Below are positions 11,804 through 34,368 of a stretch of 35,255 nt of DNA, piece after piece. The stretch covers positions 1-35,255 of the forward strand of contig JAYSWN010000073.1 of the NCBI GenBank assembly GCA_043718025.1, written 5' to 3'. This DNA is from Pseudomonadota bacterium (GTDB taxonomy: Bacteria; Bdellovibrionota; FAC87; UBA2466). The notes beneath the pieces are model-generated. The model ran no database searches. It was not told the origin of the DNA and saw nothing but the letters and a program-made list of their open reading frames with translations. Position numbers and translations under genes: made by a program. Position 1 is the stretch's first letter. The number at the start of each line of letters is the position of its first letter.

Positions 11804-12550
11804 ATGGCTAATGAATCAAAAGCGGTGGTCTATGCGCAGGGCGTTTGTAAAACCTATAAAATGGGCAAACATGACGTTGCGGCATTAAAAAATATTGATC
11901 TGACGATCGAACCTGGCGAGTTCATGGCCCTGGCGGGCACCTCGGGGAGCGGCAAAACCACCTTTTTAAATTTATTGGGCTGCCTAGACCGCCCGACCCG
12001 CGGCGAAATTTACATTGATGGCATTGCGGTGAATCCACTCACTAATGCCAAACTCTCTAAACTGCGGGCCAAAAAGATTGGCTACGTATTTCAGCACTTC
12101 AATTTGATTCCCACCCTTACCGCGTTAGAAAATGTCGAGTACCCGCTTCATTTGCTTCCCGATGCGCCAAAAAACCGCACCGAGCAAGCGAAAGAGGCCC
12201 TTCGGCAAGTGGGATTACTCAACTTTATTCACCACCGCCCTGCCCAGCTGAGCGGCGGCCAGCAACAGCGCGTGGCCATTGCCCGGGCCATCGTTAAAAA
12301 GCCGGCGCTAGTGCTGGCCGATGAACCGACGGCCGCTTTAGATCGAAAGACGGCGCAGGAGGTGCTGACCTTGATGCGCACCCTCAATCGAGAAAGTGGC
12401 ATTACCTTTGTGCTCTCTAGCCACGATTCGCTCGTTCTCAATTTTGCCGATCGCGTTTTTACATTAGTCGACGGCGAAGTGGCGAGCGATAACCGCCGGA
12501 ACACACGGCAAGAGACTAAAGACCAAAGCGAGGTCTCGCGTGTGGCTTAA
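11804..12550 (+). CDS. ABC transporter ATP-binding protein (LolD/MacB type)
   Basis: Walker A GTSGSGKT, signature LSGGQQQRVAIARA, Walker B VLADEPT and H-loop SSHD. Confidence 0.95.
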   Translation: MANESKAVVYAQGVCKTYKMGKHDVAALKNIDLTIEPGEFMALAGTSGSGKTTFLNLLGCLDRPTRGEIYIDGIAVNPLTNAKLSKLRAKKIGYVFQHFNLIPTLTALENVEYPLHLLPDAPKNRTEQAKEALRQVGLLNFIHHRPAQLSGGQQQRVAIARAIVKKPALVLADEPTAALDRKTAQEVLTLMRTLNRESGITFVLSSHDSLVLNFADRVFTLVDGEVASDNRRNTRQETKDQSEVSRVA

Positions 12551-13763
12551 ACTGAAAATGGCTTTTCGTAATACCTTTCGTAACCGCCGGCGTACGGCCC
12601 TGAACGTGCTGATGATTGCGGGCGGCGTAAGCACCATGCTGCTATTCGAAGGCTTGGTTCACCGCATGGTGGTTGGCTTGCGTGAAACCACCATTAAAAC
12701 GCAAACCGGTCACCTGCAGATCGCCAAGCAATCGTATTGGAAGAAAACTTCGAAAAGCCCTAAAGACACCCTGATTGGCAATTACGAAGCGCACCTTAAA
12801 AACATTAAGAAAAACCCGCACGTCACCTATGCCACCGGCCGGCTGAGCTTTTTTTGCCTTCTCACCAAAGGGGAACGGTCACTTAGCGCGCAGGGAATCA
12901 GCTTTGATCCAAAAGCGGAATACCGACGACAAAAATCGTTTAAGTTCATCGAGGGGCGTGGCCTTCACGCCGACAAAAAATTTGAAGTGGCGCTCGGTTC
13001 GGGCCTGGCAAAAAAATTAAAGATTCGGGCCGGCGACCAGGTGGTACTGCTCGGTCAGACTTACGACGGCGTGGTCAACGCACTCGAAATGAAAGTGACC
13101 GGCATCTTTCAAACGGCGATTTCTGAGTTTGATGACAACTCCTTCATCATCCCCCTCACATCCGCGCAAACCCTGCTAGACACGAAAGGCGTCGAGCAGA
13201 TCGTGGTGGGTTTGGATGACACCTCTTCCACCGGTAACGTTCGCAACGAGCTTAACCGTCGGCTAGACTTGGCGAGCATCGGAATCAGTATTCGCACCTG
13301 GTATTTTTTGGCGACCCTTTATCGCCAGGTGGCCGAGTTCAACCGAGTGCAAAACACCGCATTTAAATTCATCATCATGTCGCTGATTCTCTTGAGCATC
13401 ATGAATACAATCGGCAATTCGATTGCCGAACGAACGGGGGAAATTGGCACCGTACGGGCGATGGGTGAAAAGCCTTCGAGCTTAGTAATTCAGTTTTTGA
13501 TGGAGGGGCTCATTCTTGGCGTAATGGGAGCAATGGCAGGAATTATTTTAGGTACGGTCATGGGCCAAGTTGTAAATGCCATGAAAATACCGGTGATGAT
13601 GCCCGGAGCGAGCGCCTTCTTTTATCTAGAAATCGATTTTCTTTGGTCTTCGGTGAAAGAGGCCGCAGTAGTTTCTGTGGTATCGGCCGGCGTGGCGGCG
13701 GTAATACCCGCCATCCGCGCCTCGCGCATGAATATTATCGAGTCACTTCGTCGTTACGTTTGA
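12540..13763 (+). CDS. ABC transporter permease (LolC/E, FtsX-like)
   Basis: AFRNTFRNRRRT followed by TM1, a large periplasmic domain, ERTGEIGTVRAMG and three C-terminal TMs. Confidence 0.92.
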   Translation: MWLKLKMAFRNTFRNRRRTALNVLMIAGGVSTMLLFEGLVHRMVVGLRETTIKTQTGHLQIAKQSYWKKTSKSPKDTLIGNYEAHLKNIKKNPHVTYATGRLSFFCLLTKGERSLSAQGISFDPKAEYRRQKSFKFIEGRGLHADKKFEVALGSGLAKKLKIRAGDQVVLLGQTYDGVVNALEMKVTGIFQTAISEFDDNSFIIPLTSAQTLLDTKGVEQIVVGLDDTSSTGNVRNELNRRLDLASIGISIRTWYFLATLYRQVAEFNRVQNTAFKFIIMSLILLSIMNTIGNSIAERTGEIGTVRAMGEKPSSLVIQFLMEGLILGVMGAMAGIILGTVMGQVVNAMKIPVMMPGASAFFYLEIDFLWSSVKEAAVVSVVSAGVAAVIPAIRASRMNIIESLRRYV

Positions 13764-13764
13764 A

Positions 13765-15039
13765 TCACGTTCCCATCAAATAGCCTTTTAAAAGCACGTA
13801 GCCGCGACTGGCAGATTGAAAGCGGCCGAATTGGCTCTGCTCTCCTCCCAATAATATATCGGCGCCAAAGAGCAGCTCGATTCGGCTTGAAACCGGCACT
13901 AAGTAACGTAGCTGACTCAACGTGCTGCCATCGGTAGGCGCATAGCTAAAAATCACTTCAAAATTTTGGTCGCGGAAAACTGGCCCCGAGGCGTGCAACG
14001 TGACCAAAGGACGGTGGCGCGGCGTAACGGCCCCCGCGATCGATTGCGACAAATAATTTTCGGACACTTGGACGCCGAGGCGCCAGTTGGTCACTTTGGT
14101 GTAATCAACCCCCAACACGCCAACGAATTCGTTGGTGGTGTGGTTGGTATAGCTGCCCACATTAACCGCATCCACTTGCTTATCGAAACTGGCCAGCGCT
14201 TCGGCTCTCCATAAAAAGGGATCATACTCGGCGGTAGCGGTGGCGCCGAAGGTTTGAACGCGCGGGTGAAAACCCTCGAGTTGGGCTTCAAGCGGCGCGG
14301 GATTGGTTAGCGTAAAACGATAGTTAGCGGCTCGGTCATGATAATTGAAATAGAACAGCCCTAGATCGACTCCGTTTATCGCCGTAGTGCCGCGTAAACC
14401 GAATTCACCGTTTTCCAGGGCCAAGGGTAAGGTCCGCGAGTCGACCACGGTCAACTTTCCCGACGGAAAAAGGTTAGCGTAGTAGTTACCGAAATCGGTA
14501 CCTTGAGAGGGCGAACGATTGAAATACGGTTTAGGAATGTAGAGGAACTGAAGTGAGCCACCAGACAGCACATACTTTAAATTCACGATGGGCACGGTTA
14601 GACGCTGCTTGTTCATGTCGCCCAAGCCAAAGTCGCGCGTGTCTTTAGGATTTACCACGTCAGCAAAATAGAATCCGAAGGCCTCACCCCAAACCACCTG
14701 CTGATAACCTAACTTAGCGATTAGCGAAGGCGTTTTGTACTGAACGTACAGGTCGTTTATCGCCACCTCGCCGGAGTCATTTTTGGCCAGCGAAGCGTCG
14801 TAGCGCGGGTTGGTGACGAAAGCCACTTCGGCAAAGGCACGTACGCCCGCAATCGCGCTCCACTCGCCAAACTTTGCCTTCTGGTCGAACTCCAGCCAAT
14901 GGCGGTGCGAGGCGAGATCGCGCGGCGAAACTAAGTGATACGCCAACCGTGAATTCAACTCCATGCGGGTGTCGAATACCAACTGCGGAGCGGCAACGGC
15001 GGTCGTGGCAAAAAGGAAAAGAGCTAGGTGCTTAATCAC
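13765..15039 (-). CDS. Outer-membrane beta-barrel protein (DUF1302-like)
   Basis: GTG 15039 overlaps the upstream stop and gives the signal peptide (M)IKHLALFLFATTAVA. Motifs DLYV..LGYQQVVWG..DVVNP and alternating beta-strands. Confidence 0.7.
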   Translation of the reverse strand: MIKHLALFLFATTAVAAPQLVFDTRMELNSRLAYHLVSPRDLASHRHWLEFDQKAKFGEWSAIAGVRAFAEVAFVTNPRYDASLAKNDSGEVAINDLYVQYKTPSLIAKLGYQQVVWGEAFGFYFADVVNPKDTRDFGLGDMNKQRLTVPIVNLKYVLSGGSLQFLYIPKPYFNRSPSQGTDFGNYYANLFPSGKLTVVDSRTLPLALENGEFGLRGTTAINGVDLGLFYFNYHDRAANYRFTLTNPAPLEAQLEGFHPRVQTFGATATAEYDPFLWRAEALASFDKQVDAVNVGSYTNHTTNEFVGVLGVDYTKVTNWRLGVQVSENYLSQSIAGAVTPRHRPLVTLHASGPVFRDQNFEVIFSYAPTDGSTLSQLRYLVPVSSRIELLFGADILLGGEQSQFGRFQSASRGYVLLKGYLMGT

Positions 15040-15757
15040 CCAGTGATTCTTTGTTGAAGAATTTTTCATCCAGGTTTTCTTTTTTATAACCGTAGTACTT
15101 GAGGTGCGATTGCTTGTTGGGTTGCAAAGCATCTTTGATCACCAGCGCGGTCAAACGTGGCATGCCCATGACAACTTCCCGTTCGGAATACTCGCCGGTT
15201 TTAAGTAATTTACCCGACAGCGCAAAAAACTCGGCCTTGAGGGGGTAAAAGTCTTTTTCGGCGACCCACAGGCGCACTTTTCGGTAGGCCGCGGTTTTGT
15301 CTTTGGCCGTGAGAATAAGGCGGTAGTAGCTCACGCCTTTGAGTTTCTCGCGTTTTTCGAACTTAGCGACATAGTCGTTACTGAACTTGGCGCGGGCGAT
15401 GTCGCCATTGGCCACTTCGCCGGTCAGCCGCTGCTGCAGACCGACTCGGGTTGGGCGCTTTAAAGTGGGCAAATAGAGCCACAATGAGCCGGCCATCAAG
15501 AGCTTGCGGCCGGCCAAACGCTCGGGAAAGACCGTTTCCACCAGGGTGTACTTCATGTCCTTTGAGTGAACTTTATAGACATTTTCTTGAGCTAAAGCCG
15601 AGCCGTTGAAGTCTTTAACCCGCACATTGAACGAAAAGCTACCGTCCGGACCTCTTTTTTCATCTGCTTTGGTAACCACTTCCTGGGCCGTGAGGGAATA
15701 GGCCCGGGGCGAGCAAATGGCTAATAACAATAAGAAAAACGATAGTTTGGTGGTCAT
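15032..15757 (-). CDS. Outer-membrane lipoprotein-sorting protein (LolA-like)
   Basis: Signal peptide, then GRKLLM..LWLYLP..RP.R..QRLTGEVANGDI and EFFALSGKLLKT. Confidence 0.85.
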   Translation of the reverse strand: MTTKLSFFLLLLAICSPRAYSLTAQEVVTKADEKRGPDGSFSFNVRVKDFNGSALAQENVYKVHSKDMKYTLVETVFPERLAGRKLLMAGSLWLYLPTLKRPTRVGLQQRLTGEVANGDIARAKFSNDYVAKFEKREKLKGVSYYRLILTAKDKTAAYRKVRLWVAEKDFYPLKAEFFALSGKLLKTGEYSEREVVMGMPRLTALVIKDALQPNKQSHLKYYGYKKENLDEKFFNKESLGD

Positions 15758-19055: not shown

Positions 19056-20870
19056 TCAACGACTAGACAACTTTACCTTTAATGAGGTGCGCCGGTGCGT
19101 GACCGCCTTTACCGACACGTCGTCGTGGGCATTGGCGATTGCGGCGGTGTTAAACATTTCAATTCCGATGTTCAGCTCTTTTTGCGGAACGTGAATGATC
19201 GGAAAAAGTTTGGTAGCGGCGGCAGGAATCGTTAGTTCCCATTTTGCCGCGGAGGGGGCGCTGCGCTTTGGTAGACAACCCAAATGATAGCCGCGGTTTC
19301 TATTGGTATTGTAGCCGCTGATATCAATTCGAAGTGATTCACCGCCGGTGAAACTTGTGACCTTTAAATGAAAGTCTTTTCCCGGCATAAAGACCCCATC
19401 CGCCTTTACCTTGTAGGGAGCAACGCCAGAAGTTTTGAATTTGAAACTCCGCTCTTTGCGTTCTGTAGCTCCCACCAGGGTAAACTTTTCGGTTAAGCTC
19501 AGCCACTTGGCCAATTGAGCGTGAGCAAACCCGGGGCCGGTCATGTCGCGGAAGTAATTAGACGGAAGAAAAGAAAGCGCAGCTTCGCCCTCCTTTTTAA
19601 ATGAGAGCTCCTTAAGGCCGAAATCAAACCCATCGGGATCGGGGTAATCCACTCGCGCATTAAAATCGAACTGGCGTAAACGACATTCGCCAAACACTTC
19701 GTCACTAACCACCTGCGGGCTGCGAAACGAAACCGAGGCTTCAAGAAATTTTTTATCCAAGGTGTAAGCGGCGATTTCATCTTCATCGATGCGAATGTTG
19801 AGCGACTGCTTTATTGCGGCGCTTTGATCGATACCCTGAGGTAGTGGCTTAGTGGCAGCCAGTGGCTCCAATAACTCTGCCGAGAAAGGCGATAATGAAC
19901 TTGGGCCTTTGGCTCCGGGCACTGGATTCGGAAATCCCCGGTCGTCGGTTCGGGCGACCAACGTATCCCACTTCTTTACGCCGGTTTTGTCCATGGTAAG
20001 GCGCAGTACCCAACTGGTCCGGCTAAGTTCTTCTAATTCCCAACGACTTTCCCGGTGCATGTCGGCAAAATCGTCGAAAACGAAATTGCCTAGGCTATAA
20101 ACAATTAATTTGCCCTTGTAAGTTTCGCTACCCTCGGTGACGTGCGGGTGGCCGCCGATGACCACGTCGGCGCCGGCATCAATCATTTTACGGGCCAGGT
20201 TTTTTTGTCGGGCGTTAGGATGGGTGAGGTATTCCTCACCCCAGTGCATAAAAGTGAGCACAAGATCAACTTGCGATCGAACCGCACGAATGTCCTCTAT
20301 CACTTCTGCGTCTTCGCTCCACGCCACGCCCGCTTTAGTCTCGGTGGCTTCAAACGAACGGGGTCGAAATTCGTTGTAGCCCAGAATCGCAATTCTCAAA
20401 CCCTTCTTTTCCACAATCCAGGGTGCATGCGCCCGTTTCTTGTTCTCACCCGCGCCAAAGTAGTTCACCTTGGCGGATTTTAAGTTACCAAACATTTCGG
20501 TGAGGGCTTCGGGGCCAAAATCGACGGTGTGGTTGTTGGCGAGAGAAACGGCGTCAAAGTGTTTGGCGACGTACGAAAGTACCGCGGGGTCGGCGCGAAA
20601 CGTGTAGTGCTTTTCCGCGCGCAACCCGGAATCGGCGGCCACGCACTCCAAATTACCCACACGAATATCGGCGGCGGCTAAGACCGAGGCAAACCCGGCA
20701 AACGGGTCTTGGCCTTGGGCAATGAATTTGCCGGGCCGCCGCCCGAGAAGAATGTCACCTACAAATACCAGATCTACCGTTGGGGAAGGCCTGACCGCCT
20801 TAGCGGCGAGGCTATTCGGCGGACAAAGCAAGTACGCAAACCCTAAAATAAATAACATGGGGCGAATCAT
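19056..20870 (-). CDS. CapA (PGA_cap) family metallophosphoesterase with a C-terminal extension of about 280 aa
   Basis: Motifs VGDI, GNLE, SLANNH..DFG, HWG.EY, GGHPHV and YSLGNFVFD. Start is likely ATG 20870 (ORF track gives 20906). Confidence 0.88.
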   Translation of the reverse strand: MIRPMLFILGFAYLLCPPNSLAAKAVRPSPTVDLVFVGDILLGRRPGKFIAQGQDPFAGFASVLAAADIRVGNLECVAADSGLRAEKHYTFRADPAVLSYVAKHFDAVSLANNHTVDFGPEALTEMFGNLKSAKVNYFGAGENKKRAHAPWIVEKKGLRIAILGYNEFRPRSFEATETKAGVAWSEDAEVIEDIRAVRSQVDLVLTFMHWGEEYLTHPNARQKNLARKMIDAGADVVIGGHPHVTEGSETYKGKLIVYSLGNFVFDDFADMHRESRWELEELSRTSWVLRLTMDKTGVKKWDTLVARTDDRGFPNPVPGAKGPSSLSPFSAELLEPLAATKPLPQGIDQSAAIKQSLNIRIDEDEIAAYTLDKKFLEASVSFRSPQVVSDEVFGECRLRQFDFNARVDYPDPDGFDFGLKELSFKKEGEAALSFLPSNYFRDMTGPGFAHAQLAKWLSLTEKFTLVGATERKERSFKFKTSGVAPYKVKADGVFMPGKDFHLKVTSFTGGESLRIDISGYNTNRNRGYHLGCLPKRSAPSAAKWELTIPAAATKLFPIIHVPQKELNIGIEMFNTAAIANAHDDVSVKAVTHRRTSLKVKLSSR

Positions 20871-20916
20871 AACCTTCGTTTTGGCATTCACGGCTCGACC
20901 CGGCAAGCATCGGTAA

Positions 20917-22554: not shown

Positions 22555-24984
22555 TTACAGTTCCGGATTCCAATACAGAAACGGCTGGTCTTTAAGCACG
22601 CTCATCCATTGCAGTGTTCTTAAGCTCTCTTTTCCCATAACGTGAAGCAGCAGCTCACTCGTGAGATCGCTCTTTTCCATTTTAATGAGGCCCCCGCCTT
22701 CGAACATATCGAATAGGCCCGGCGATTCGGCCACCGAAAGAACCTCAAAATCACCCGGCGCATAGCCCACCTGAGTGGCGGCGTATTGAACCGCTTTATG
22801 AATGCCGCCAATCTCATCAACCAATTTATGCTTTAAAGCCTGACGTCCAATCCACACCCTTCCCTTCGCCACTTTATCTACTTCAATTTGCGAAAGCTTT
22901 CGCGCCTTGGCCACGAAACTGGTGAAACCGTCGTAATACTGATCGACCCGGCGACTCAGAAGTTTTCTTTCTTGATCGCTCCAAGCCCGGTCTTCGGAAT
23001 CGATGGCCGCAAAGGGACCACCGCCCAAAAACTCTTTGCGCAGTTCAATTTTCTTAAATAGGCCACCTAAATTAAACTTGCCCAAGAAAACGCCAATCGA
23101 TCCAGTTTGCGTAAGGTTGTCGGCAAAAATTCTGTCGGCCGGCGCCGAGATCATGTAGCCGCCACTGGCGGCAACGTCGCCCATTGAAATGACAACGAGC
23201 TTGTCTTTTTTAGCCCGCTCAACCATCGCCGCAATTTCATCGCTGGGTAAAATTTCGCCACCGGGGCTCGAAACCCGCAAGACAATGGCGCGCGTACGCC
23301 GATCCGACATTGCCCGCCTAAACTGCCTCTCGACCGAGTCGGGAGTGATGTGACTCTCGCCACCGAGAGAAAGCAACCGGCTCTTCTTTCGCAAAATATC
23401 CCCGTCGGCCACAATGACACTCACCCGCGGGGGTAAAGCGAGACGATCGCTTTCCATAAAGAGATCATCGATCATCACATAACTTTTGCGAATCTTTTCG
23501 CCCTCTTTTTGCCAACCGCTTACGGCGTCGACGAGCCCGTTAGCTTTTGCGTCTTCGGCGCCAAAAATCCCTTGCTCTACAATCGACTGCCATTTGGTGG
23601 CGTCGATACGTCGAGATTTCATCAGTAGTCTTTGTATTTCGGTTTCGGTGGCTTCGATCTGCTCGAGCGTGGCTCGGCGCGAGGAGTCCGAACTTTCTCG
23701 GCGCGTAAACATTTCGGGGGCCGACTTGTATTCGCCCTTAGCCAAAAACTGCCCCTCCACCCCCAATTTTTCTAAGGTGCCCTTTAAGAAATAGCGTTGC
23801 GACTTAAGCCCAAGAATTTTTAACTCGCCGGCCGATTCCATGTGCACGGTGGTTCCCGCCGAGGCGATCAGATATTCTTTGATGCCGGCATTGCCCAAAA
23901 AGACTTCAACTTTCTTGCCCGCCTGGCGCACTTTCCAAATGGCCTCAAATAACTCTTCGGCGGCGCCCAATCCCAAGGCAAAACTTTCGAGGCGAATCAC
24001 CACCGCGTCTACGCGCGTTTGTTTCTCGGCCATTTCCAGCTGTTGAATCACGTCGAGCAAGGATTGCCGGTCTTTGAGAAAAAGGCCGCCCCGGTACCCC
24101 ATTTCGTCGATCTGGTTATCTACCTTGAGCCGAAGCGCGGTGGGGGGATCCACCACTGACGAAGCGTATGGCTGGGTGTTGGCCTCAACCTGCACGGTGA
24201 CGCTGCGGGGGGCAGCCGCGTCGGGCTGAAATGACGAGGCCAGTTTGATATTGGCCAGCCGGAGCTGAATTCCCGCATTCCATTTAAATTGCTCGTGATA
24301 CCCGGCACGAACAAAAAGGCCCGGAATCACTTCCGCCTGGGCGTTGGCCTGGTAACTCAAGGTTTGTAAAAAGTTGGTGCTGGTGGTGTCGACGTCGGCC
24401 ATCAGGGTGACCCAGGGAAGGGGACGAAGCGTTGCCCCAAAAACAAATTGGACCGGAAGCACCGCGCCCGCCAATTGTGGACGGTTTAAGTCGTTGGCAA
24501 AAATACCGACGCTCCAAAGTTTTGAAGGCCTAATTTGCAGACCTAGTCCAACCGAATCGTAAGAACCCAAAGTCGCCACATCGGAGCGAACCAGAACGTA
24601 GCGCAATCCCAGGTAAACCATGGGGGGAAGGCTCGGCCACAGGGGAAAGGAGGGCAGCCCCAGGGCAAAACCAAAACGCTGCCGTTTTCCCGGTGCAAAT
24701 TGAATCTCTTCTAGACCTAAGCTAACCAGACCGTAGCCGAGGGTTACCGCAAAATCGTGAGACTGCACCCGGCTAAAGCCAAATGACTCAGAAAGAATTA
24801 AGCGCGACCCGTTTAGCTCAGAGTCAAAACCAATTGCCGCCGGGTTGGTCCATAAGTTTTGCGAACCGTGGGTGTGGGATACCGAGGTGCCAGGCTCTAC
24901 GTTGCCCACTAAGGGTTCGGCCATTCCCAGTTTCGTAACCAGGCAAAAAATTAAAATGAACCAAAGAAACGCGAAGTTTTTCAT
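22555..24984 (-). CDS. sppA: SppA (S49, 67K tandem-domain type) protease with an N-terminal outer-membrane beta-barrel
   Basis: ATG 24984 with AGGGG upstream gives a signal peptide. Catalytic Lys in GEYKSAPE; RVSSPGG; catalytic Ser in SMGDVAASGGY; TGSIGV; AKGRVWIG. About 260 aa of beta-strands carrying LWTNPAAIG precede the protease. Confidence 0.9.
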   Translation of the reverse strand: MKNFAFLWFILIFCLVTKLGMAEPLVGNVEPGTSVSHTHGSQNLWTNPAAIGFDSELNGSRLILSESFGFSRVQSHDFAVTLGYGLVSLGLEEIQFAPGKRQRFGFALGLPSFPLWPSLPPMVYLGLRYVLVRSDVATLGSYDSVGLGLQIRPSKLWSVGIFANDLNRPQLAGAVLPVQFVFGATLRPLPWVTLMADVDTTSTNFLQTLSYQANAQAEVIPGLFVRAGYHEQFKWNAGIQLRLANIKLASSFQPDAAAPRSVTVQVEANTQPYASSVVDPPTALRLKVDNQIDEMGYRGGLFLKDRQSLLDVIQQLEMAEKQTRVDAVVIRLESFALGLGAAEELFEAIWKVRQAGKKVEVFLGNAGIKEYLIASAGTTVHMESAGELKILGLKSQRYFLKGTLEKLGVEGQFLAKGEYKSAPEMFTRRESSDSSRRATLEQIEATETEIQRLLMKSRRIDATKWQSIVEQGIFGAEDAKANGLVDAVSGWQKEGEKIRKSYVMIDDLFMESDRLALPPRVSVIVADGDILRKKSRLLSLGGESHITPDSVERQFRRAMSDRRTRAIVLRVSSPGGEILPSDEIAAMVERAKKDKLVVISMGDVAASGGYMISAPADRIFADNLTQTGSIGVFLGKFNLGGLFKKIELRKEFLGGGPFAAIDSEDRAWSDQERKLLSRRVDQYYDGFTSFVAKARKLSQIEVDKVAKGRVWIGRQALKHKLVDEIGGIHKAVQYAATQVGYAPGDFEVLSVAESPGLFDMFEGGGLIKMEKSDLTSELLLHVMGKESLRTLQWMSVLKDQPFLYWNPEL

Positions 24985-25197
24985 GGAAAGGCCCCTAGCT
25001 CGAAAAGACCCGCAAAAGATAGCTAATCTCTCCTCGTCACGACAGTCATTTCTCGGGCTTTGAAAACGGCACAACAAGCGACCGACCGCGTTAGCGTCGT
25101 TTGCCCCCCAACTAGTAACGGCCGGATAAGATTCAACAATGGCGGTGGGGCCGGAGGCCCATTTGATCCCGGTGCTTAGTTTTGTTAAAGAGAGGGG

Positions 25198-25596
25198 ATG
25201 GCATTGGACCCACTCGAAAAAGATCACCTCCGGCAACAGATGGCCACCCGCATGGGCAGTTTTCTTGAAGGGGGCAAAACCGTGAGCTGCGTTAGCGGCC
25301 ACGTCTTTAATGAGCTTAGGCAGTGCGAGCTTTGCGGACGCGTGCATGCGGATGAGCTAATGGTAATCAAGAACCGGGCTCACAAAAAGATGATGGTATC
25401 GCTCGATTGCCTCAAAGAGATGGTGCGCTTTAGCGTGACCGACGTGGAAGACCTTCCCAAATGGCTGGAAAAGATCAAAACGCTTTGGGGAGAAGAGGGT
25501 CGCCGTAAGGAAGAAGAGACCAAGAAACGCGATGATGAACGGCGCCGCCTTGAAAAAAAGGTGATCGTGCGCAAGCGACCTAGGCTTCCCGCTTAA
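25198..25596 (+). CDS. Hypothetical protein with putative Zn-binding motif and charged C-terminal helix
   Basis: GAGAGGGG precedes the ATG; CELCG..H...VSLDC; immediately upstream of cinA. Confidence 0.7.
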   Translation: MALDPLEKDHLRQQMATRMGSFLEGGKTVSCVSGHVFNELRQCELCGRVHADELMVIKNRAHKKMMVSLDCLKEMVRFSVTDVEDLPKWLEKIKTLWGEEGRRKEEETKKRDDERRRLEKKVIVRKRPRLPA

Positions 25597-31755: not shown

Positions 31756-33036
31756 ATGAACGCAATCGTCAGTGACCTTCTTTCGTTTTTAGAAAAATCG
31801 CCCACCCCTTTTCACGCCGTCGCTAACCTTAAATCGCAACTTACGGCGGCGGGCTTTACTGAACTGCACGAGGCAGCAACGTGGAACAAAAATTTACCCG
31901 AAGCGGCTTTTGTTATTCGTGACGGCGCCATTGTGGCGTTTCGACGGGGCAAAGAGCCCTTAGAAAAAACGGGCTACCGTTTGACCGGTTCGCATACGGA
32001 TAGCCCGTGCCTAAAGGTAAAGCCTTGCGCACCAATTGAAGTGCACGGCTACGTAAAGTTAGGCGTCGAAGTTTACGGCGGCGTAATTTTGTCGACCTGG
32101 TTCGATCGCGACCTCTCTTTGGCGGGTCGAGTAAGCTACGTCGACCCAAGCGGCAAGGTGCAAACGGCGTTGGTCGATTTTAAACGGCCGGTGGCCACGC
32201 TTCCCAACTTGGCGATTCACCTCAATCGCGAGGTGAATGAAAACCGCACCATCAACAAACAGTGGGAGCTGCCGCCCTTGTTGTTTCAATGGCAAAAAGA
32301 TCACAAGCGCGGAGAGTTCGAGTTAGAAAAATTGCTGGCCGATGAACTGGCGGGGCAAAAAATTTCGATCAAAAAAGTTTTGGCCTTCGACCTGTCTTTT
32401 TACGACACCCAAAAGCCTGCGCTGGTCGGACTGAACCAAGAATTTATTGCCAGTAGCCGGCTCGATAATTTACTAAGCGTTTACATGGGGCTTAGGGCGC
32501 TAATCGAGGCTAGCCCTACGGCGACCTCGATTTTTGTAGCAAACGATCACGAAGAGGTGGGTAGCGAAAGTCTGTCGGGCGCCCAGGGAACTTTTTTGTC
32601 GACGGTACTGGAACGACTGGCCGGAAGCCGCGAAGGGTTTCATCGAGCCATCGCCCAGTCTACCTTCGTATCCACCGACAATGCTCACGGAGTGCATCCC
32701 AACTATCCGGAGAAACACGACCGGGATCACGCGCCACTTTTAAATCATGGGCCGGCGATTAAGGTGAATGCAAATCAGCGCTACGCCACCAATTGTGAAA
32801 CGGCGGCCCTTTTTACCCAAGCCTGTGCCAAAGCCGATGTGCCGGTTCAGCACTTTGTGGCCCGCAGTGACATGCCCTGCGGCAGCACCATTGGCCCTCT
32901 CACCGCCTCCAAGCTAGGGGTGAAAACCGTTGACGTTGGCGTTCCTACTTTTGCCATGCACTCTATTCGCGAGCTGGCTGGGGTGCGCGATCCGGAGTGG
33001 TTGCGTCTGGCATTAAAAGCTTTTTACGAGTCCTAA
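31756..33036 (+). CDS. apeB: M18 family (aspartyl) aminopeptidase
   Basis: Motifs SPTPFHAV, HTDSP, WFDRDL, RLDNL, DHEEVGS, DNAHGVHPNY and MHSIRE. Confidence 0.93.
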   Translation: MNAIVSDLLSFLEKSPTPFHAVANLKSQLTAAGFTELHEAATWNKNLPEAAFVIRDGAIVAFRRGKEPLEKTGYRLTGSHTDSPCLKVKPCAPIEVHGYVKLGVEVYGGVILSTWFDRDLSLAGRVSYVDPSGKVQTALVDFKRPVATLPNLAIHLNREVNENRTINKQWELPPLLFQWQKDHKRGEFELEKLLADELAGQKISIKKVLAFDLSFYDTQKPALVGLNQEFIASSRLDNLLSVYMGLRALIEASPTATSIFVANDHEEVGSESLSGAQGTFLSTVLERLAGSREGFHRAIAQSTFVSTDNAHGVHPNYPEKHDRDHAPLLNHGPAIKVNANQRYATNCETAALFTQACAKADVPVQHFVARSDMPCGSTIGPLTASKLGVKTVDVGVPTFAMHSIRELAGVRDPEWLRLALKAFYES

Positions 33037-33041
33037 ACAAA

Positions 33042-33434
33042 ATGAGTGAAGAAATTAAACCACGTTCGATTAATGTTTTGGGAACGCCACTTAAGGCGTG
33101 CTGCAACCGACTTAAAACCGGTTTTTTTCGCACTGGATCGTGCGAAACCAACGATGAAGACCATGGGTTGCACACCGTTTGCACTCGGGTAAACGAAGAA
33201 TTTCTCGAGTATTCGCGGTTGTCGGGAAATGACCTTTCTACGCCACGTCCCGAATATGGTTTTGCGGGTTTACAGCCCGGTGACTGTTGGTGCGTTTGCG
33301 CACTTCGCTGGAAACAGGCCTTCGACGCCGGCTACGCGGCCCCGATAAATTTAGAGGCGACTGAAGAGAGCACTCTCGAATACATTCCTCTTTCCGATCT
33401 GATGAAAAGTGCGATTCCCGAACAGCGCAACTAG
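33042..33434 (+). CDS. DUF2237 family protein
   Basis: Motifs NVLG..L..C, TGFFR.G.C, GNDLSTP.PE..F.GL.PGD.WC.CA.RW. Confidence 0.9.
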   Translation: MSEEIKPRSINVLGTPLKACCNRLKTGFFRTGSCETNDEDHGLHTVCTRVNEEFLEYSRLSGNDLSTPRPEYGFAGLQPGDCWCVCALRWKQAFDAGYAAPINLEATEESTLEYIPLSDLMKSAIPEQRN

Positions 33435-33489
33435 AAGCCAACGCGATAGCAGACCAGCTAGCTCATGATTCGCGTCGGCCTCCCGCCTT

Positions 33490-34368
33490 TTACGGAAGCT
33501 CTAAGTCTTTTACCTGAGAACCAGCAAAGGCCTGTGGATAAGAGGGCTTAATCGGCTGCCCTTCGATCAACATCTGTCGCCCCTTAATGTAGATCTTTTT
33601 TGCCTCTTCAAGCTTGTCCGGCGCCTCGGCCGTTTCCGCCAAGCCCTGAGCCTCATCGACGAGCTTTCGGCCCTCGGCGGTCAGTTTGGCGTTGCGTTCG
33701 CTCAGCGCCTTCTCTTTTTCGGTTACGCAAGTCGTAGTGTTTTTATACACCTCGGCCCAGCTCTTGGCCGTGGGCAGTGCCTCGATAAGGCAACCATCCC
33801 AATAGGTATAAACATGGTCAGAACGACATCCGAACGAAGGCCTATCGTAGCGAGCGGCAGTCATGACGATGCGATTTGATTTTTGCATCAGCTCGTCAAC
33901 AAATACTCCCGAGTAGCACGCCGAAATCAAAACTACCGTCGGCTGATCACCGCAAGTATCGGTAAGCATTTTATCTAGGTCGGCCGGCCGCAAGCCACTG
34001 TCGGGCTTGATGTAGGTAAAACCCTGTTTGCTACCGTGAGAGGTAACGTGAACGAGACAGGCATCACCTGATTTTGCCCCTAATTTTTCTAGAGAACGCT
34101 GAATGTTCTCGGGCGTGGTGCGCTCCACATTGCCGGTGATCTCGTCTGGATTTACTGAGAGTTCGCGAATGTTTTTGGCGTCGACGCCGCGTTTTTCTAA
34201 AATCTCTTTTATCTTTTTTCGGGCGTTGTCGAACGTCTTGATGCTGTCGTCGCCGCTAGCGAGCACCACTTTCCAATTCAACTTTGATTCGGCTTTGGCC
34301 GAAGTGCCTAAGGTAAGTGTGATTGCGAAGGCCACTAAGGTAAGTGCCCGCACGGTGTTATTCCCCAT
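33490..34368 (-). CDS. Secreted C13-family (clan CD) cysteine peptidase
   Basis: Signal peptide; His motif TSHGS; Cys motif ISACYSG; TAAR.DRPSFGC. SD GGAGG upstream. Confidence 0.88.
   Translation of the reverse strand: MGNNTVRALTLVAFAITLTLGTSAKAESKLNWKVVLASGDDSIKTFDNARKKIKEILEKRGVDAKNIRELSVNPDEITGNVERTTPENIQRSLEKLGAKSGDACLVHVTSHGSKQGFTYIKPDSGLRPADLDKMLTDTCGDQPTVVLISACYSGVFVDELMQKSNRIVMTAARYDRPSFGCRSDHVYTYWDGCLIEALPTAKSWAEVYKNTTTCVTEKEKALSERNAKLTAEGRKLVDEAQGLAETAEAPDKLEEAKKIYIKGRQMLIEGQPIKPSYPQAFAGSQVKDLELP

Follow-up and report, generated by a model that had tools for sequence, protein, structure and literature searches.

Descriptions of ordinary SppA place the enzyme in the inner membrane. 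On the minus strand of a 35,255-nucleotide stretch of bacterial DNA (the window), a gene at 22555..24984 reads as an SppA protease joined to an N-terminal outer-membrane beta-barrel, as an earlier note made from the letters had proposed. Is this joining real, on which side of which membrane would the protease sit, and what would the barrel be for?

In the translation of the window the gene is a single open frame of 809 aa plus stop, and it contains every strand and catalytic motif quoted in the earlier note (SVSHTHGSQNLWTNPAAIG, FAVTLGYG, RFGFALG, VYLGLRY, VGLGLQIRP, WSVGIFAN, FVFGATLRP, LFVRAGY, WNAGIQLRL, YKSA and AASGGY). The mechanical open reading frame is longer (930 aa from 25347) and runs into a conserved gene of the opposite strand. 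We rejected this longer start and place the start at the ATG at 24984, because relatives begin there with a signal peptide. The stored gene call P0002, also of 930 aa, has 121 codons too many at its start (window 24985-25347, minus strand). Promoter and terminator scans at the gene gave matches at chance level only.

We also rejected a join of two genes by assembly, the danger that the earlier note had pointed out. Among the other database matches, 40 of 55 extend over 91-100% of the query, with identities of 37-78%, and in two of four sequencing runs, both possibly the source of the window DNA, a 4378-base contig crosses the stretch with no difference. The full-length relatives and the spanning contig exclude such an error, and the fusion is confirmed as a real, conserved joining of two known kinds of protein.

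The C-terminal part is a tandem S49 protease of the SppA 67K-like kind (residues 283-753, 22726..24138; this and all following features of the gene lie on the minus strand). Pfam sees the S49 part alone, in two stretches (PF01343, 208.4 bits). TIGR00706 scores 232.6, above its cut-off of 155.45, and the 67K equivalog TIGR00705 scores 271.8, below its cut-off of 311.45. The modelled protease superimposes on E. coli SppA (protease IV, 67K, S49; PDB 3BF0 and 3BEZ) with Z 39.1, rmsd 2.8, 454 aligned residues and 28% identity, and the two share the tandem fold and the Lys and Ser motifs and have similar tail patterns. The putative catalytic residues Lys420 (YKSA, 23725..23727) and Ser607 (AASGGY, 23164..23166) align to the E. 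coli motifs and are present in 135 of 135 aligned relatives. The Ser-Lys dyad is intact, in agreement with the first reading. The C-terminal S49 domain also matches the 36K SppA of B. subtilis (PDB 3RST and 4KWB; Z 22.5, rmsd 1.8), but that enzyme is a single-domain octamer of a monoderm membrane, with an inhibitor, SppI, and no barrel. Behind the protease, C-terminal helices and a hydrophobic-Pro tail (22558..22725) are modelled at low confidence; the tail pattern occurs in 68 of 116 fusion or truncated sequences and in 48 of 75 ordinary ones.

The protein departs from E. coli SppA at its N terminus: E. coli SppA has an inner-membrane helix there, the fusion a signal predicted to be cleaved and then a barrel of 250 residues. 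In the superposition the soluble part of the E. coli enzyme, which starts at its residue 55, lines up with the model from residue 280 on, and the barrel occupies the place of the helix. The predicted Sec signal peptide covers residues 1-22 (24919..24984), with cleavage after LGMA as judged by eye; a hydrophobic signal core is found in 128 of 132 scorable relatives and a lipobox in 1 of 135. Outside the signal we detected no membrane helix in the query, where the best 19-residue hydropathy is 1.38, and the mature part has a window above 1.9 in 1 of 135 relatives.

Following the signal are an N-terminal tail and plug (residues 23-61, 24802..24918; a coil, then two helices in the models) that carry the NPA motif (residues 47-49, 24838..24846; N in 124, P in 133 and A in 128 of 135 sequences). 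The predicted 14-stranded outer-membrane beta-barrel comes next (residues 62-269, 24178..24801), and strand 14 is joined to the first strand of the protease by a linker (residues 270-282, 24139..24177) that has 12-14 residues in 123 of 135 sequences. The earlier note had suggested modelling the N-terminal region, and AlphaFold2 builds it as a 14-stranded barrel, not as a soluble non-barrel fold. The full protein (44 aligned sequences) reaches a mean pLDDT of 87.1 and a pTM of 0.85 with 14 strands at residues 62-269, and the domain alone (21 sequences) reaches 89.3 and 0.86 with the same strands.

We searched the modelled barrel domain against 48,161 representative chains. The best match is a type IX translocon chain that we take to be PorV (Z 25.3, rmsd 2.7, 240 aligned residues, 14% identity), followed by a FadL homologue (Z 24.7), TodX (23.0) and FadL (22.6). 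BAM-complex chains from three Bacteroidota match at Z 21.3-21.7; the next fold after these groups is OmpG (Z 16.8). With Foldseek alone an OmpG mutant came first, followed by two translocon chains that gave the best query TM-scores (0.66 and 0.70); these chains (PDB 6H3I chain F and 8GL6 chain F) are presumably PorV. No single match in the fold searches spanned both barrel and protease. By sequence, the barrel profile found only two chance-level matches among solved structures (E 0.13), and the first 280 residues of the query have no Pfam match (Toluene_X, PorV, UPF0164 and TraF_2 included). Among 21 relatives, Pfam gave three weak UPF0164, two weak TraF_2 and two OMP_b-brl matches, and Atlas neighbours at 0.90 carry Pfam families of this set. 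Over 135 relatives, alternate strand positions are hydrophobic in fractions of 0.58-0.96 versus 0.09-0.36 for the others, which are small or polar. The proposal of a 14-stranded FadL/PorV-type barrel with an NPA plug is thus borne out, as a prediction, by the folds, the fold searches and the conservation.

The strands also predict on which side the protease lies. Over 100 aligned sequences, turns after even strands are short (medians 2, 6, 5, 3, 2 and 2) and loops after odd strands have medians of 4, 3, 7, 14, 8, 3 and 8. In outer-membrane barrels the short-turn side is usually the periplasmic one. In the model and in relatives strand 14 exits on the short-turn side, and the C terminus is for this reason predicted to be in the periplasm. 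The even strand number and the short-turn side would place the protease in the periplasm, as first supposed. They speak against a barrel that exports or shows the protease outside the cell in the manner of an autotransporter or intimin, as do the plug that the lumen is predicted to hold and a 13-residue linker, too short to thread back. A secreted peptidase would suit predators and autotransporter barrels do occur lower in the fold list (Z 10-13), yet we consider such surface display highly improbable.

How widespread is the fusion? Searched against 1.84 billion representatives, a profile of the barrel matches 833 clusters at E <=0.001. In the best 150 of these, S49 with both catalytic residues is present in all 99 that have at least 700 aa; 16 shorter ones have a partial S49 and 35 have none, the latter being mostly fragments with a few stand-alone barrels. 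The full-length fusion is present in 18 of 20 genomes of the query's own family and in 2 of 3 other genomes of its order, and in none of 127 genomes sampled from the rest of its phylum. It is found in 79 of 100 Myxococcota genomes, by a hand count in which the phylum is that of an Archangium record and the match starts within the first 36 profile positions. Fusion-sized best frames occur in 31 of 31 Poribacteria (S49 present in 3 of 3 checked), and in the Bacteroidota in the wide sense the count is 4 of 81 (S49 in 4 of 4). With the Poribacteria as positive control, the barrel profile has no match in 122 monoderm genomes (61 Actinomycetota and 61 Chloroflexota). Among the groups searched, the fusion is restricted to diderms.

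Named carriers are available for 15 of 80 loci, two of them weak, and their labels include Bdellovibrionales, delta proteobacterium, Polyangiaceae, Kofleriaceae, Bradymonadia, TA06 and Poribacteria. By identity, the closest relatives with a name (45% and 42%) are labelled uncultured delta proteobacterium and Bdellovibrionales. Atlas clusters point to Cloacimonadota and Margulisiibacteriota as further leads. The earlier guess that long SppA proteins may exist in related lineages thus understated a large, multi-phylum family. One fusion (L054:5083-7893) lies in a record labelled cyanobacterium (Stenomitos), where transfer or mis-binning is possible. Our literature search, which covered subscription journals thinly, did not turn up any account of an SppA fused to a barrel.

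The protease domains of the fusions cluster strongly. In a FastTree of the protease part, one branch (support 88) has 114 of 115 fusions on one side and 74 of 75 ordinary sequences on the other, and the tree needs 3-4 changes of state versus about 60 after shuffling. IQ-TREE on 59 of 191 sequences gives 4 changes versus 19; deep nodes are weak in both trees, and one fusion (P0186) is placed near ordinary sequences. A single origin of the fusion would be compatible with these trees, as would several. One protein, L047 (5749-7608), nests among the fusions in both trees, yet where they have the barrel it has a membrane helix, with the spacing unchanged. The Enterobacterales label of its record looks doubtful.

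Stand-alone relatives of the barrel (L143:898-1716 and L144:3980-4789) stop at the linker. Each lies directly behind a DUF4097-like gene, a weak match in one of the two. We rejected a split pair of barrel gene and SppA gene, as the two stand-alone barrels seen in context adjoin no SppA. In the barrels closest to the fusion that lack SppA, the C-terminal domain is a different one, a helix-hairpin-helix that we take to be ComEA-like. Such proteins (L151:1201-2418, L152:1354-2508, L154:1321-2520 and P0162) were seen in the phylum Bacteroidota, and they are possibly an outer-membrane DNA-binding counterpart.

We favour, at about even chances, a reading in which a plugged FadL/PorV-type barrel replaces the SppA helix and anchors the protease under the outer membrane, where it would destroy incoming or shed amphipathic peptides. 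An anchor is favoured because the barrel stands at the helix position, is followed by a fixed 12-14 residues and is exchangeable for a helix (L047); because the surface loops are short and the plug lacks the first-helix motif of FadL and PorV; and because the closest barrels without SppA bear a different C-terminal domain.

The plug itself was compared with that of the FadL, TodX, TbuX and CymD channels, which are alike in their 14 strands, NPA and an N-terminal tail through the lumen (Z 22-25). The fusion barrel has about 250 residues versus 400-440 in these channels; its tail is shorter and without the first-helix motif, and its C terminus runs into the protease. This motif, which precedes NPA, has four loose matches in 135 relatives, and it is matched by two of three comparison barrels (the host's own FadL, L132, and P0162; P0177 was missed). 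From cleavage to NPA we predict 24 residues in the query; from the end of the hydrophobic core the median is 31 (132 sequences). Model residues 21-26 onward align to FadL residues 2-6 onward. Strand 3 is unbroken in the AlphaFold2 model and a lateral opening is not evident; in the fold search a kink-less FadL mutant scored Z 24.9 versus 22.7 for the wild type, and mutant and wild-type TodX tied.

Against a bare anchor, the NPA plug, the lumen glycines and the lumen charges E92, R103, D146 and D197 are conserved beyond what an anchor may need. The pair E92/R103 has its charges swapped in four stand-alone barrels, which supports the strand register. Arg-Pro turns at the predicted periplasmic rim are specific to the fusions (R152 in 126 and R187 in 113 of 135, versus one of four stand-alone barrels each) and fit a tight, possibly functional coupling of barrel and protease. 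When contacts between barrel and protease were sought by mutual information, invariant columns dominated the scan.

The earlier note had proposed import of hydrophobic or lipidated peptides coupled to proteolysis, or quality control of outer-membrane proteins. These conserved features would also suit the main rival reading, a coupled importer and protease, in which the lumen passes food or signal peptides, the plug moves and delivery is straight into the bowl. Such coupled import would further agree with the fixed linker, with a whole-chain pTM that implies a confident relative placement of the two domains in the model, and with the wide occurrence of the fusion in myxobacteria, which eat peptides. 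Transporters are among the FadL relatives, as a BAM paper describes. The plug without the first-helix motif, the unbroken strand 3, the short surface loops (medians 3-14) and the helix that can stand in for the barrel in L047 argue against it.

Expression in Myxococcus xanthus bears on the same point. The supplement of PMC9548883 lists three sppA genes of 2043, 2478 and 1818 bp; the 2478-bp gene, MXAN_2480, has the length of the fusion and is a probable copy of it. According to the data available from that study, its transcript is steady and not raised during predation (35-42 versus 49-63 at 2 h and 33-46 versus 38-47 at 6 h; PMC9548883), which also speaks against import. Taken together, we regard coupled import as rather unlikely. 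Also unlikely, in our estimate, is its bolder form, in which four plugged barrels over one bowl would feed outside peptides in. This would be a surface-gated protease that needs neither ATP nor TonB; nearly all myxobacteria and Poribacteria would have it, and in age it might equal the helix-anchored 67K SppA.

Returning to the anchor, might it hold the protease to a partner? PorV, the type IX shuttle, is the best fold match, and compared with it the fusion has a smaller barrel, short surface loops, a fused protease and a host without SprA. PorV-like cargo shuttling is unlikely because the host shows no type IX translocon: SprA (PF14349) matches in neither of two family genomes (92% and 98% complete) and in 3 of 3 Bacteroidota controls. 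Searches of the query's own genome for type IX cargo domains and UPF0164, run with no positive control alongside, were empty and carry no weight here.

As with BamG or PorV, the barrel could instead dock on an outer-membrane machine (BAM), bringing the protease to where stalled outer-membrane proteins gather. The three matching BAM chains and strands 13-14, which are less lipid-like than the others, are in keeping with such quality control. According to the available text of two papers (PMC12578637, PMC12611786), FadL-family barrels act as docking subunits in BAM, and in PorV and BamG the FadL-type fold serves without a known transport role; SppA is unmentioned in the same text. BamG shares the FadL-family fold and, unlike the fusion, has an extended N-terminal tail, large loops binding surface lipoproteins and no fused enzyme; the tail of the fusion is short. 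No bamA-like Pfam match was found among 33 window proteins scanned, and no bamA-like gene was recognised, without a Pfam scan, among the recurring neighbours. Together with the missing SprA and the description of E. coli-type SppA as acting on released peptides (PMC9360617, available text), this makes quality control on BAM decidedly unlikely.

We found no conserved neighbour that hints at a substrate in 21 family and order loci and 13 distant loci. In all 21 of the first set a small Cys-rich gene adjoins the fusion in back-to-back orientation, and in 20 of them cinA lies beyond it; this arrangement recurs in none of the 13 distant loci, and for this reason we rejected an operon partner and read the recurring neighbours as lineage synteny only. 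The Cys-rich neighbour (window 25198-25596, plus strand, 132 aa) has two Cys pairs and a weak Prok-RING_2 match (E 0.0045). In four loci (L125, L126, L128 and L130) a same-strand gene, presumably a glutamate racemase from its motif, lies 5-53 bases upstream of the fusion. Elsewhere in the window, an ABC ATPase and an FtsX/MacB permease face genes for a DUF1302 barrel and a LolA-like protein (11804-15757), a PGA_cap (CapA-like) domain is followed by about 280 residues without Pfam match (19056-20906, minus strand), and two more peptidases, an M18 aminopeptidase and a C13-family protein (31756-34368), are not among the recurring neighbours.

Besides the fusion, the host genome encodes a short SppA that has an N-terminal helix, and a FadL-family protein in a gene of its own. 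Another S49 gene is present in all 20 fusion-bearing relatives of the family and order and in 5 of 5 distant carriers. Could the fusion share the task of ordinary SppA, the breakdown of released signal peptides, but carry it out at the outer face of the periplasm? The presence of another SppA in every carrier checked makes this improbable. This housekeeping role would agree with active-site motifs that are those of ordinary SppA, with a comparison of 115 fused with 75 ordinary protease domains, which found only six strongly differing positions, and with the steady expression of MXAN_2480. E. coli SppA is described as cutting peptides released from the membrane (PMC9360617). Nevertheless a costly barrel, long kept in nearly all Myxococcota and Poribacteria, needs a reason related to the outer membrane.

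Our preferred reading, an anchor under the outer membrane, would work as follows. The protein would be exported via Sec and its signal cleaved, and the barrel would insert with both ends in the periplasm, as model and strand parity predict. Four chains may form the SppA bowl, as in the E. coli enzyme, and their four barrels would then be coplanar. Substrates, for instance antimicrobial peptides or pieces of outer-membrane proteins, would enter the bowl from the periplasm or the inner leaflet. The second, helix-anchored SppA, whose gene is present, may keep the signal-peptide job. SppA of B. subtilis is described as degrading subtilin and protecting against nisin and LP9 (PMC7568657). By analogy, we favour peptide defence or clean-up as the job of the fusion, the defence role being borrowed from this Gram-positive enzyme.

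The location can be compared with proteomic lists for M. xanthus. MXAN_2480 is absent from the available vesicle proteome supplement of PMC4158809, where the FadL MXAN_7040 has 74 entries, and from the main-text tables of PMC3222651, whose supplements list 228 predicted barrels. Its absence from these outer-membrane and vesicle lists counts against an outer-membrane location; vesicles might exclude a large periplasmic bowl, which would explain it.

If true, an outer-membrane-anchored SppA family would give entire phyla an extra proteolytic post in their envelope, and the FadL/PorV/BamG fold would gain a new use. The family is hidden in databases as ordinary SppA because the barrel has no Pfam match. 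The probable copy in the genetically tractable M. xanthus makes location, substrate and the choice between anchor and channel directly testable, and the family bears on the question of what SppA proteins really cut.
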